A stretch of 42,873 bases of DNA from contig CANREI010000001.1 in NCBI GenBank assembly GCA_947629595.1, positions 1 through 42,873 on the forward strand. Reading direction: 5' to 3'. The DNA comes from an uncultured Alphaproteobacteria bacterium. Its GTDB lineage: Bacteria; Pseudomonadota; Alphaproteobacteria; CAAHEQ01; UBA3637. Under the pieces are notes generated by a model, which saw only the letters and a program-made list of their open reading frames with translations, was not told the DNA's origin and made no database searches. A program made the translations under genes and the position numbers. This document shows, piece after piece, positions 6,931-31,222 of the stretch (the stretch's first letter is position 1; each line of letters begins with the position of its first letter).

Positions 6931-8040
6931 ATGACGATAAATAATCAAGAAACGGCAGGAAAAATTACACCCCCCCCCCGCACAGAGCCGGATTTTATAG
7001 AGAATACAAATAAAAGATTACAATTACTGGAAAGTAAACTGACAAGTATGGATACGCGTTTGAAAGATGCTTTGGCAATAGCCGGAGCCGCAACACGCAG
7101 ACATATTTTTCATTGGGGCAATGAAGAAAAATTTACCCGTAAAGAATATGAATGGTTTGTCACGCGACAATATTTTGACGGGCTTCATCGCTGGCCTGAT
7201 TTAAAACATCCCGAAAGACTGGGTGAAAAAATACTGTGGTTGAAATTGCACTATCAGCATCCGCTGATGAACATTGTGACGGATAAATATCGCGTGAAAC
7301 AATATGTAGCCGATCAAATCGGAGAAAAATATGTTATTCCGCTGCTTAATGTTTGGGATAATGTGTGGGATATTGATTTTAACACGCTGCCGAATCAGTT
7401 TGTGATTAAATGTAACAATTGGGCAGGCGGAAAATTCGGTAATTATGTTATTCGTGATAAAAGTCAAATGAAGCGTGATGCCGTGCTTTATAATTTAGAA
7501 AATTGGATTCAGGATTGGCAGGATTGTTTTTATCATGCCGTTATTGAAGCACGGCGTAAACCGGTTGTGTTTGCGGAAAAATATATGGTAGATTCGAAAA
7601 GTGAGCAGTTGCGCGATTTTAAGTTTATGTGTTTTCACGGTGAACCGCAATTTTTTTGGATTGATTCGGATCGAACCACCGAGCATAAGCGTAATTTATA
7701 TGATACGCAAGGAAATTTGCTTCCTGTTCGATTGACTTATTCGAATTTTACCGATGATGAAAAGGCTATGCCTCAAAAGTTAGATGAAATGTTGGCGTTG
7801 GCAAGAAAGCTTTCGAAGCCGTTTCCGCACATGAGAATTGACTTTTATGAGGTGGACGGAGAAATTTATTTCGGCGAATTTACACCGCATACGGATGCAG
7901 GATTAGTTAATTTTACACCGGACGAATGGGATTTTAAATTCGGTGAATTTTTGAATTTAAAACGGTGCGATAAAGAGTATTTGGTAGAATATCCGGCCGT
8001 AAAAGAATCGCTTCCTTACACGGGTGAAATTCCCGATTAA
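6931..8040 (+). CDS. TupA-like ATP-grasp family protein (surface glycopolymer modification)
   Basis: DKYRVKQYV...YVIPLL.VWD...IDF..LP.QFVIKCN, DFKFMCFHGEP.FFWIDSDR..EHKRNLYD and RIDFYEVDGEIYFGEFT match my recollection of the ATPgrasp_TupA family. Confidence 0.8.
   Translation: MTINNQETAGKITPPPRTEPDFIENTNKRLQLLESKLTSMDTRLKDALAIAGAATRRHIFHWGNEEKFTRKEYEWFVTRQYFDGLHRWPDLKHPERLGEKILWLKLHYQHPLMNIVTDKYRVKQYVADQIGEKYVIPLLNVWDNVWDIDFNTLPNQFVIKCNNWAGGKFGNYVIRDKSQMKRDAVLYNLENWIQDWQDCFYHAVIEARRKPVVFAEKYMVDSKSEQLRDFKFMCFHGEPQFFWIDSDRTTEHKRNLYDTQGNLLPVRLTYSNFTDDEKAMPQKLDEMLALARKLSKPFPHMRIDFYEVDGEIYFGEFTPHTDAGLVNFTPDEWDFKFGEFLNLKRCDKEYLVEYPAVKESLPYTGEIPD
6970..6979 (+). repeat. Homopolymeric C10 tract inside codons 14-17 of the ATP-grasp gene
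   Basis: Counted directly: aca ccc ccc ccc cgc. The tract is in frame as assembled. Confidence 0.9.
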
Positions 8041-28217: not shown

Positions 28218-28811
28218 ATGACAGTTTATGCTTATATTCGTGTTTCAACCGATCGCCAGAATAACGATAATCAGCGGTTTCAAATTATCAATTACTGCAA
28301 AGAAAAAAATTTAAACATTGATTTGTGGATTGAAGAAATCATTTCAACCGGGCAGGCTTTGAAAAAAAGAAAATTATCGCGTCTTTTAAAAAAAGTAAAG
28401 GAAAACGATATTTTAATAACCTGTGAAATATCCCGCTTGGGAAGAAATCTCTTTGAAGTCATGGAAATTTTATCAACGTGTATGAAAAAAGGGTGTCGGG
28501 TTTGGACCATTAAAGATTGTTATACGCTCGGAAATGATATTCAATCAAAAGTGTTGGCTTTTGCCTTTGCTTTGGCGGCAGAAATTGAAAAACAGCTGAT
28601 ATCGCAACGAACAAAACAATCTTTGGCGCGTCGCAAGGCGGAAGGAAAGCCGATCGGGCGCATGAAAGGGGCTAAAAATAAAACGCACAAATTGGACGGC
28701 AAAGAAGAACAAATTGAAGATTTGTTTAAAAAGGGTGTTCCGATTGCGCAAATTGCCCGTATGATGAAATGTCATCGCGACACGATTTCCCACTTTTTAA
28801 AACCCGTTTAA
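28218..28811 (+). CDS. Serine recombinase / DNA invertase, Mpi-family-like
   Basis: AGGAG RBS. N-terminal YAYIRVSTDRQ (catalytic Ser10), [31 protein letters not shown], and C-terminal HTH (GVPIAQIARMMKCHRDTISHFLK). Size is typical of small invertases at 197 aa. Confidence 0.85.
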   Translation: MTVYAYIRVSTDRQNNDNQRFQIINYCKEKNLNIDLWIEEIISTGQALKKRKLSRLLKKVKENDILITCEISRLGRNLFEVMEILSTCMKKGCRVWTIKDCYTLGNDIQSKVLAFAFALAAEIEKQLISQRTKQSLARRKAEGKPIGRMKGAKNKTHKLDGKEEQIEDLFKKGVPIAQIARMMKCHRDTISHFLKPV

Positions 28812-29105: not shown

Positions 29106-29262
29106 AAACGTACGTTTTTTGCAACACTTTTTTTTGATTTTTTCAAAAAAAATTTATTTGGAGGTGTTTTTAATGCAATATCAACGGGTTATAAAAAGCC
29201 TGTTTCACCAATTTTTGAGGGTATTTTTGCCCCCGAAACCGCGTTGCATTAAAGGTACGTTT
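29106..29262. promoter_or_regulatory. Candidate invertible DNA switch 2 (inverton)
   Basis: Arms AAACGTACGTTTTTTGCAAC (29106-29125) and GTTGCATTAAAGGTACGTTT (29243-29262) are 17/20 complementary. The last ~30 internal nt resemble switch 1. It ends 38 nt before the ATG at 29301 and lies 295 nt downstream of the recombinase gene. Confidence 0.6.
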
Positions 29263-29300
29263 AATTGTATACTATTCGTATAGTGAAAGGGAGTCGGAAA

Positions 29301-29423
29301 ATGACAATGCAATTCAAAAAACAAGTTCAAAATCAAGCACAAGCGGTATATATGCAAAGCAACGAACCGCAAATTGCAGGCGGGGAAGCGGAAAAAAAAT
29401 GCAAATTCGGCAGGACAAAATAA
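29301..29423 (+). other. Out-of-frame 5' leader segment of the second pilin-like gene
   Basis: GGGAG RBS 7 nt before the ATG, as in gene 234. It encodes MTMQFKKQVQNQAQAVYMQSNEPQIAGGEA, homologous to residues 36-62 of the first paralog. It leaves the main frame at the A8 tract 29392-29399 and stops at 29423. Confidence 0.6.
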
Positions 29424-31222
29424 TTGGGAAAACACAAATTCGGCAAGATAAAATCATTGAAAATCAATCACAAAGCGGTAAAATGATGATTAAAAATACA
29501 CAGAACAAAAAAGAAAGCTCAAAACATAAATCAATGCTTTCAATTTACAAGAAAAATATCATTGAAACACACTCTCAAAGTGGCCGTTCCATGATTGAAA
29601 TGCTGGGTGTGTTGGCTATTATTGCCATTTTATCAATCGGAGGGATTGTGGGGTTTCGATTGGCAATGAATTACTATCGAGCATCACAAATTGCCCATGA
29701 AATGAATATGATGCGCACCGATGCGCAAATAAAAATTGCCCAAGGGACGGAAGAGTTAATGCTCGGAGAACCTTATGATCCTGTCAACGATTCCCTCGGA
29801 CATATTCAGTTTAATGATGCGTATCTTGTTGATTTTGATTGTATTTATATGAAAACGGAAATATCAGAACCCGAACCTGCTTTTTGTACCGGTGCCAATG
29901 CTTATTATATAGAATTGCAAAACATTCCCGAAGGTGTTTGTAAACCGCTGGCAAACTTAATTGATAAAATGGATAATGAAATTGCCTTTTACATTAACGG
30001 AAACTCTGTTGATGCGGAAGAGGGAGAAAAAGGCGTTTGCAATGCAGAATTCAATACATTAAGGGTCATCTTCGGTGCCGATTCGGATTCGAACGCCATT
30101 AAATGCGGTGGTGCCGATGACCCCGCTTGTCCAACAGAACTGCCTGTTTGCCTTAACCATATGTGTGTGGAATGCGAAGAAAGTAATGATTGCGGCGAGT
30201 TTGAAGTTTGTGATCGGGAAACGGGAAGATGTATCGATGATTGTACGAAAGGCGCATGTAACAGTGGTGTTTGTGTGGGCGGCGTTTGTAAAGAATGCAA
30301 AAACATGGAAGATTGCGACAACGGTTTAGCATGCATAGACAATCAATGTATGCGTTGCGAAAACGAATCGGATTGCGAAGAAAAACATTGCATAGAAGGT
30401 TCATGTGTTGACTGTACGGAACCGACACCGAAATATAACGCGACAGAAAACAGGTGCGTGGAATGTATAGATAGTGAAGATTGTGAAAATCCGAAACCAT
30501 ATTGTAATCCCACAACAAATACATGCGAACCGTGTGAAAATGATTTACAGTGCGATACAACGCAAAACGAACATTGCCAAGTTTCCACCGGATCGTGTAT
30601 TATATGTGATGTCTATACAGAAGTTTGGGATGAAGAGTTAAAAGATTGTCGTTTGGCAAAATCTTGTAAGGAATTAGATTGCCCGATAGATACATTCTGT
30701 TTAAGTGGCAAGTGTAATGCTCCATGTCCAACCGATGAGGTAATAACAATAGAAGAAGAAGTCTGTAATAGCTTTTTTTGTCGACCAACAAATATTGGTT
30801 TTGTGCAAGGGCAAGTAAATGGAAGAAGCTATTATGGAAACAGATATAGCCTAAACTGGTGGAGTTCTCAGCGATTTTGCCAAGCAGCAGCCCGCGAAGC
30901 AGGTGTAACAAGTGGTCGATTGGTGAGTTGGAGTGATATTAATTGGCAATGTTATAATGATGCTAACAAACCGGATCCAACAAACAAGAAAGATGGATAC
31001 TGCAAAGCAACAAACGATGATTCCGGTAGTGATAATGTGTCGAAAGCAATAACAGATTTGAGAAATATGTATCAATGTACTAGTCAATGTTTTCCATGGC
31101 TGCAAGAGGCATATAGTTCTTGTCGGGCGTATGATGTAAATCTTTTCGACGGATATGTGCGACCCTATTCTTTTGGCGGTAACGGCAGTTATGCTGATTA
31201 TGCTTTATGTGTAGGTAATTGA
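29399..31222 (+). CDS. Modular type IV pilin-like protein paralog with expanded Cys-rich repeats and C-type-lectin-like C-terminus
   Basis: G62|RSMIE-MLGVLAIIAILSIGGIVGF prepilin motif. At least 4-5 repeats of C-x2-C-x3-5-DC-x5-8-C-x5-8-C (for example CVECEESNDCGEFEVCDRETGRCIDDC). C-terminal WWSSQRFC...C...CRAYDV..FDGYVR...YALC. The functional start is uncertain (29399, 29483 or 29534, or 29301 after a +1 slip). Confidence 0.75.
   Translation: MQIRQDKIIGKTQIRQDKIIENQSQSGKMMIKNTQNKKESSKHKSMLSIYKKNIIETHSQSGRSMIEMLGVLAIIAILSIGGIVGFRLAMNYYRASQIAHEMNMMRTDAQIKIAQGTEELMLGEPYDPVNDSLGHIQFNDAYLVDFDCIYMKTEISEPEPAFCTGANAYYIELQNIPEGVCKPLANLIDKMDNEIAFYINGNSVDAEEGEKGVCNAEFNTLRVIFGADSDSNAIKCGGADDPACPTELPVCLNHMCVECEESNDCGEFEVCDRETGRCIDDCTKGACNSGVCVGGVCKECKNMEDCDNGLACIDNQCMRCENESDCEEKHCIEGSCVDCTEPTPKYNATENRCVECIDSEDCENPKPYCNPTTNTCEPCENDLQCDTTQNEHCQVSTGSCIICDVYTEVWDEELKDCRLAKSCKELDCPIDTFCLSGKCNAPCPTDEVITIEEEVCNSFFCRPTNIGFVQGQVNGRSYYGNRYSLNWWSSQRFCQAAAREAGVTSGRLVSWSDINWQCYNDANKPDPTNKKDGYCKATNDDSGSDNVSKAITDLRNMYQCTSQCFPWLQEAYSSCRAYDVNLFDGYVRPYSFGGNGSYADYALCVGN

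Follow-up and report, generated by a model that had tools for sequence, protein, structure and literature searches.

A derived four-nucleotide loss splits the leader reading frame of one gene in a switch-associated, pilin-like family of an uncultured gut alphaproteobacterium

In an uncultured alphaproteobacterium, one member of a large family of pilin-like genes has its leader reading frame broken by a derived loss of four nucleotides (nt). The gene lies on a stretch of 42 873 nt (the window; GenBank assembly GCA_947629595.1, contig CANREI010000001.1), which is contig C1, the longest, of assembly G000 (1.34 Mb, 151 contigs, 41.5% GC, 77% complete); coordinates are window positions unless another contig is named. 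It stands downstream of an invertible DNA switch and is one of 83 genes in the assembly that encode the N-terminal signal G-(R/Q)-S-M-(I/V)-E-M-L-G-V-L. The nearest named relatives of the organism are uncultured Alphaproteobacteria metagenome-assembled genomes (MAGs) from the rabbit gut ('Lapin'). Comparison of the leaders that precede this signal showed that they are coding and that frame breaks among them are rare. With moderate confidence, we consider the lesion to be a genuine, non-programmed insertion or deletion (indel) in a modular and, to judge from its frame, translated leader; in this redundant family it would be neutral or would lower expression mildly.

The frame break and the leaders of the family

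An earlier note on this DNA had described a leader frame that opens at an ATG with a ribosome-binding site (RBS) at 29301, ends at a stop at 29423 and gives way, at a run of eight adenines (A8), to the main open reading frame (ORF), which begins at 29399 in the +2 (that is, -1) frame. All of these elements were found where it had placed them (Table 1). The two starts are 98 nt apart, and the last A of the run is the first base of ATG 29399, the first possible restart codon. When the tract was rebuilt in silico, A9 fused the two frames into one of 640 amino acids (aa), as had been proposed, and A6 did so too (639 aa); a stop was reached after 40 codons with A8, after 50 with A10 and after 49 with A7, for which a stop had likewise been predicted. 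GGGAG followed by the ATG start is the canonical context of the family, most paralogs having the same GGGAGTCGGAAAATGAC context, and residues 1-33 of the 29301 frame agree with the family leader consensus. Homology to the leader of the first paralog was recovered (residues ~32-64 matched, 95% nt identity over 81 nt), and the 33-bp tandem repeat reported after the tract is real and in frame. This duplication is common to paralog C58, while paralog C21 and a relative in genome G015 have a single copy. Past the signal, the gene body is intact over 543 codons.

The leaders of the family, extracted at each G000 locus between switch arm and signal, are modular and rich in lysine and glutamine. They span ~8 to ~115 residues before the predicted cleavage and end in ...SQSG↓RSM(I/V)EMLGVL, the arrow marking the predicted cut. 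To a basic unit of 15-22 residues (for example, MTRKSKKQFKNQSQSG↓RSMVEML) may be added an insert of 27 residues (...YMQSNEPQIAGGEAGKQNRIKTHSQSG) or an N-terminal unit of 31 residues (MTKYARKNQLKQAEMQGNKAKIVQGETGSRK), whose end repeats the RBS-ATG region in translated form; longer units are also found (QIRQDKII... and MMIKNTQNKKESSKHKSMLSIYKKNIIETHSQSG).

The reading frame of these leaders is kept with few exceptions. In 81 of the 83 paralogs, an uninterrupted frame connects the first ATG with an RBS after the switch to the signal. Across 1,380 codons of long leaders, frame 0 has no stop, compared with 72 in one alternative frame and 58 in the other, and the length differences between leader classes (9, 12, 33, 81 and 93 nt) are all multiples of three. 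Third codon positions of the long leaders vary only somewhat more than first and second positions (0.18 vs 0.10-0.15), and for this reason we regard the constraint on the amino acids as weak and that on the frame as strict. Around 50 leaders sampled from G011 and G015, two sister species in the genus, were all in frame, including leaders of 96 and 103 residues with the same QIRQ units. From the open frame in nearly all paralogs and the lack of stops in the long leaders we therefore infer that the leader is translated, and is not an untranslated region, throughout the family.

This result bears on a further suggestion of the earlier note, that the leader is untranslated or an upstream ORF and that the true start lies downstream in both paralogs. 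Applied to the whole family, the leader would be a non-coding 5' region or a regulatory upstream ORF, and translation would begin at MMIK (29483) or MLS (29534). Both Met codons are indeed present, and they are conserved among the long-leader paralogs; in addition, the final unit MLSIYKKNIIETHSQSG resembles a canonical leader in length and charge, and leader DNA is better conserved than the gene body. However, a non-coding leader does not fit a frame that is kept in almost every paralog, free of stops and altered only by multiples of three, nor does it fit long leaders that stay open across species despite many substitutions. Moreover, the ATG at 29534 has no Shine-Dalgarno sequence, whereas the ATG after the switch always has GGGAG or GGAGG. 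We regard a downstream start for the family as quite unlikely, and that suggestion did not stand; in the window gene, the Met codons at 29483 and 29534 are possible, weaker restart sites.

The family contains only one other broken leader (G000 contig C28, from position 1369 on the + strand), in which one G of a GG pair in GCGGAAATG, and not a homopolymer unit, has been lost. The 31-residue unit upstream now terminates where its stop overlaps, as ATGA, an internal canonical RBS-ATG, and this internal start still yields a normal leader of 16 residues (MTRKSKKQIQNQAQDG).

Origin of the frame break

The closest paralogs of the window gene are those at C58:4409, which shares the 33-bp duplication, and at C21:315, which has the single unit and serves as the outgroup. 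Both carry A8 in frame (GAAAGAAAAAAAAT) and read GAA-AGA-AAA-AAA-AT(G/A), that is E-R-K-K-M/I, where the window reads GAA-AAA-AAA-TG. An alignment that also included the G015 locus showed that, compared with C58 and C21, the window lacks 4 nt net, through loss of one GAAA unit of GAAAGAAA. Because both C58 and the outgroup have A8 in frame, the run itself was inherited unchanged and the loss of 4 nt is derived. At the homologous site, the G015 relative has A6, and paralog C101 has a related leader module with an in-frame A9 at its own lysine-rich junction. The site of the tract is thus a lysine-rich and A-rich stretch whose run length drifts. A7 runs (TCAAAAAAACAA) occur in nearly every leader of the family, and one of the 83 paralogs is shifted at an A run.

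In the comparison with orthologues that the earlier note had called for, a syntenic gene was found in the closest MAG (Lapin-032 bin105, our G011) at 2570-3588 of contig CANQUX010000013.1 (locus L041, G011:C13), downstream of the invertase, but the long leader module and the tract are absent there. The two loci share 98% protein identity in the recombinase and 89% DNA identity in the flanks. In place of the 95-residue leader of the window gene, the syntenic gene has a basic leader of 16 residues (MTKQLKKQFKNQSQSG↓RSMIEML), which indicates that leader units are gained or lost quickly and that long leaders are dispensable. The units are bounded by a repeated CA(A/G)AGCGG (QSG) motif, and these repeats could mediate in-frame unequal recombination. 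A protein search of 5.8 billion clusters retrieved, as the best other protein, one with 53% identity to the 607-aa product, and hence no 640-aa allele of the A9 type; a pattern scan of metagenomes for TTGCAGGCGGGGAAGCGG-N(4-16)-TGCAAATTCGGCA found nothing.

Phase variation, recoding and assembly error

Since a change in run length can restore the frame, the earlier note had considered slipped-strand phase variation layered on the inversion switch. In such a system, A8 (OFF or low) would alternate with A9 or A6 (ON) and so add a translational switch to promoter inversion. The toggle itself is real, a change of +1 or -2 restoring the 640- or 639-aa frame. The tract is also placed where a variable surface-protein family encodes its leader, at the 5' end of a gene that is otherwise undamaged, and classic contingency-type tracts of C9 to C12 exist elsewhere in the genome. 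The lesion, however, is the loss of a 4-nt unit beside a run of unchanged length, and C58 and C21 carry this A8 without loss of frame (A6 in G015). Although A7 runs are present in nearly every leader, a shift at a homopolymer is confined to the one paralog among 83 and was seen in none of the ~50 leaders sampled from the sister species. This leader module is missing from the syntenic gene of the sister MAG, and MutS and MutL are present and intact in the genome. The tract is also no longer than composition predicts: the 1.34 Mb contain 338 A8 and 317 T8 runs, or 655 in total, about one per 2 kb. Positive support for A8 as a contingency locus was thus not found, and we consider phase variation at this run doubtful. 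A fuller version of the idea, in which the run would be a second translational switch (A8 low or OFF, A9 or A6 ON) with leaky slippage giving graded expression layered on inversion, we consider slightly more doubtful still. If true, the leader of a pilin-like adhesin family in a gut alphaproteobacterium would be subject to variation on two tiers, and a mixture of A8 and A9 would be a rare instance of repeat-based and inversion-based phase variation acting on one gene.

In the homopolymer spectrum of G000 (A7/T7, 1,789; A8/T8, 655; A9/T9, 53; two A10 and no T10), numbers fall sharply from 8 to 9. Part of the excess of A8/T8 comes from a T8 and an A8 built into each of the ~90 switches. A8 is not above the expectation from composition, and the outliers are poly-C runs of C9-C12. 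These include C10 at 6970-6979 of the window, within codons 14-17 of a TupA-like ATP-grasp gene (PF14305, E = 4.9e-55), as well as C8:14460-14471 (C12), C29:581-591 (C11), C62:3994-4004 (C11), C51:8280-8288 (C9) and C94:2799-2807 (C9), several of them in an AATA-Cn context. If the organism uses repeat-based switching, the candidates are these poly-C runs and not A8.

Two well-known systems invite comparison. The opa genes of Neisseria carry CTCTT repeats and pilC carries poly-G, in both cases in the region coding for the signal peptide. As in the gene studied here, a repeat in the leader-coding region of a multi-copy, variable surface family toggles the frame by its length and leaves the mature protein unaltered. 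The Neisseria repeats, however, are long, conserved in all copies and visibly polymorphic, whereas here we find a single A8 of a kind that occurs 655 times, a shift in one of 83 copies and a neighbouring loss of 4 nt. The Mpi invertible promoters of Bacteroides fragilis are similar in that one serine invertase gene accompanies many switches, bounded by inverted repeats, before genes for surface structures. They differ in host, here an uncultured alphaproteobacterium of the rabbit gut, and in targets, here pilin-like proteins and not capsule loci; moreover, the frame break is no part of the inversion mechanism.

We also considered programmed recoding, by which a -1 ribosomal shift on A_AAA_AAA, or the addition of an A by RNA polymerase, would produce the fused precursor in a fixed proportion relative to the 40-aa peptide. 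In favour of this, the heptamer has the correct register (zero frame), and shifting by -1 there leads exactly to ATG-CAA-ATT, giving ...EAEKK-MQIRQ...; in addition, tRNA-Lys(UUU) is the only tRNA-Lys gene found in the 77%-complete assembly, and A runs are known sites of shifting and slippage (PMC5009743). Against it, efficient transcriptional slippage in bacteria is reported to need runs of ~9 A or T, and A_AAA_AAA is far less shift-prone than A_AAA_AAG (PMC5009743); for slippage, RNA polymerase of Escherichia coli requires 7 T or more, and still longer runs in the case of A (PMC6260861). A stimulatory structure was not apparent: the minimum free energy of 29400-29470 is -2.2 kcal/mol (z = +1.19), and 184 of 200 shuffled sequences folded as well or better. 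Furthermore, the two-frame arrangement is kept in no homologue, all other long-leader homologues being single-frame. The likeness to dnaX-type -1 frameshifting (A_AAA_AAG), namely a slippery heptamer of lysine codons in register and tRNA-Lys(UUU) as the only such tRNA, is offset by the weaker heptamer, the lack of a downstream hairpin or pseudoknot and the lack of conservation. Other parallels are the tssM gene of Citrobacter rodentium (PMC4256274) and, as cited in PMC5009743, genes of Buchnera and Blochmannia, in which indels in poly(A) runs are rescued by transcriptional slippage. These share with the window gene an A-run indel in an otherwise intact gene that could be partly corrected in RNA; they differ in that the window gene has a run of A8 and, in its internal ATG, a simpler way to be expressed. 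Although low-level, unselected slippage on the A run is plausible, we consider programmed recoding implausible and assign it a very small probability.

The allele is known here from the assembled contig, and the indel could in principle have arisen in assembly or sequencing of a multi-copy region, the true sequence being in frame (for example, A9 or GAAAGAAAAAAAA). The leader repeat is ~90% identical among dozens of copies, the MAG is fragmented into 151 contigs at 77% completeness, and homopolymers are a known weak point of sequencing. On the other hand, the break is internal to the longest contig, the window's large housekeeping ORFs are unbroken, and 276 of 814 long homopolymers in the genome fall within open stretches of 200 codons or more. 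A genome-wide scan of the 814 runs for changes of +/-1 that would merge long ORFs yielded only seven weak candidates, mostly at boundaries between neighbouring genes, which argues against systematic homopolymer error. Assembly error is an unlikely cause of the frame break. A chimeric assembly path was also considered and rejected; no long k-mer of the junction GCGGAAAAAAAATGC recurs in another paralog.

Consequences for expression

A genuine, non-programmed indel is thus the explanation that we favour, and its consequences can be outlined from the sequence. In the normal course of translation in the family, ribosomes would start at the RBS-ATG just after the switch and run through the stacked leader, and the product would be cut at the prepilin-like signal. 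In the window copy, the loss of one GAAA unit of GAAAGAAAAAAAAT (net -4 nt) splits this continuous leader, such that ribosomes starting at 29301 would make a 40-residue peptide and stop at 29423. The precursor could still be made by two routes. The first would be initiation or re-initiation at ATG 29399, giving a leader of 62 residues; this codon has a weak GGA Shine-Dalgarno sequence five bases upstream in an A-rich context, and the stop of the upstream ORF lies 22 nt downstream. The second would be rare slippage on the A run, either -1 by the ribosome or +1 in transcription. As the leader is predicted to be removed, and the paralogs and the syntenic gene appear to work with leaders of ~8 to ~115 residues, the mature protein would be unchanged and only its yield altered; the lesion probably changes only the amount of protein made.

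Several points weigh against this interpretation. No orthologue was found in any searched collection, and the allele was seen only once. Initiation at 29399 is predicted from the sequence, with a weak Shine-Dalgarno sequence, and cleavage of the leader is likewise a prediction. The curated N_methyl models score below their cut-offs (PF07963, 17.1 vs 21.2 bits; TIGR02532, 12.7 vs 16.3 bits). Finally, the leader upstream of the break has not decayed further, which would also fit a very recent or reversible change.

Table 1 Features of the window gene and of the region upstream of it
Feature	Position	Strand	Description
Serine recombinase (invertase) gene	28218-28811	+	Pfam Resolvase PF00239, E = 5.8e-31; C-terminal helix-turn-helix; adjoins the switch
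Invertible switch 2	29106-29262	.	Inverted repeat; left arm AAACGTACGTTTTTTGCAAC, right arm GTTGCATTAAAGGTACGTTT; upstream of the gene
Shine-Dalgarno sequence GGGAG	29289-29293	+	Read directly; 7-nt spacer, then ATG 29301
Front part of the leader	29301-29423	+	40-codon ORF reading MTMQFKKQVQNQAQAVYMQSNEPQIAGGEAEKKCKFGRTK; TAA at 29421-29423
A8 tract	29392-29399	+	29393-29399 form the A_AAA_AAA heptamer, zero frame
Main ORF	29399-31222	+	607 codons; 62 leader codons, then a pilin-like, Cys-rich mature protein
33-bp tandem duplication	29402-29434 and 29435-29467	+	In frame; 84% identical; QIRQDKIIGKT / QIRQDKIIENQ
Further in-frame Met codons	MM 29483-29488 (ATGs 29483/29486); M 29534-29536	+	Within degenerate copies of leader units
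Class-III-type signal	29582-29650	+	Gly(-1) at 29582-29584; predicted cut before R-S-M-I-E; Glu+5 at 29597-29599; hydrophobic helix MLGVLAIIAILSIGGIVGF

The switches and the pilin-like family

Most genes of the family are associated with a switch. The right-arm motif GTTGCATTAAAGGTACGTTT occurs 89 times in the 1.34-Mb genome and 101 times in the sister genome G011 (1.6 Mb), and 67 of the 83 family genes sit 100-410 nt downstream of this arm, oriented as at switch 2. Seven more have the variant arm GTTGCAAAAA(A/T)CGTACGTTT, and in four of these seven the interior of the switch is inverted. Four family genes, at C5:15934, C20:16430, C20(-):2479 and C28:7704 of G000, have an oppositely oriented switch in the assembly; at their switches, an AT-rich stretch (AAAATAAATTTTTTTTGAAAAAA...) lies beside a promoter-like element, TTGCAA-N18-TAT(A/G)CT, that spans the gene-proximal arm. 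A promoter scan gave no signal beyond the shuffled expectation.

A small pilin-like subfamily is represented in G000 at C36(-):7961, C70(-):588, C5(-):16046, C20(-):2479, C28:7704 and C104:377, and in G011 at loci L014, L062, L063, L069, L081 and L085. Where measured, its members have 131-152 residues past the signal, which is the size of true pilins. They carry a leader of 8 residues, M(K/R)xTNESG, and the 5' region of ~110 nt between switch and RBS contains the conserved, hairpin-like repeats GAGAGAAAGAATCTCTC, AAGGCAATAATGCCTT and GGCTCGGGGAGCTT.

The signal of the window gene reads ...SQSG↓RSMIEMLGVLAIIAILSIGGIVGF, with Gly at -1, Glu at +5 and a hydrophobic N-terminal helix of ~20 residues. 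It resembles the class III (prepilin) signal, and a cut at G↓RSMIE by an A24 prepilin peptidase is predicted. The genome encodes such a peptidase (PF01478, 56.8 bits, C54:3554-3871) and has three PF00437 loci for ATPases of the T2SSE type. The Gly(-1), the Glu(+5), the helix and the peptidase gene are what the family has in common with the class III signals of type IV pilins and pseudopilins; it differs from them in its Arg at +1, in sub-threshold matches to the curated N_methyl models and in stacked, duplicated leader units of up to ~115 residues. Known class III leaders have about 6-30 residues, and the long, stacked class-III-type leaders are an unusual feature of this family.

Significance

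The frame break alone matters little, as it affects one damaged or down-tuned copy among 83 redundant, probably mostly silent genes for surface proteins. Its value lies in the natural experiment that it provides, by which the long, stacked leaders of the family are shown to be under reading-frame constraint and hence, as far as the frame can tell, translated. The window copy would also allow a direct test of whether the upstream leader units are needed.

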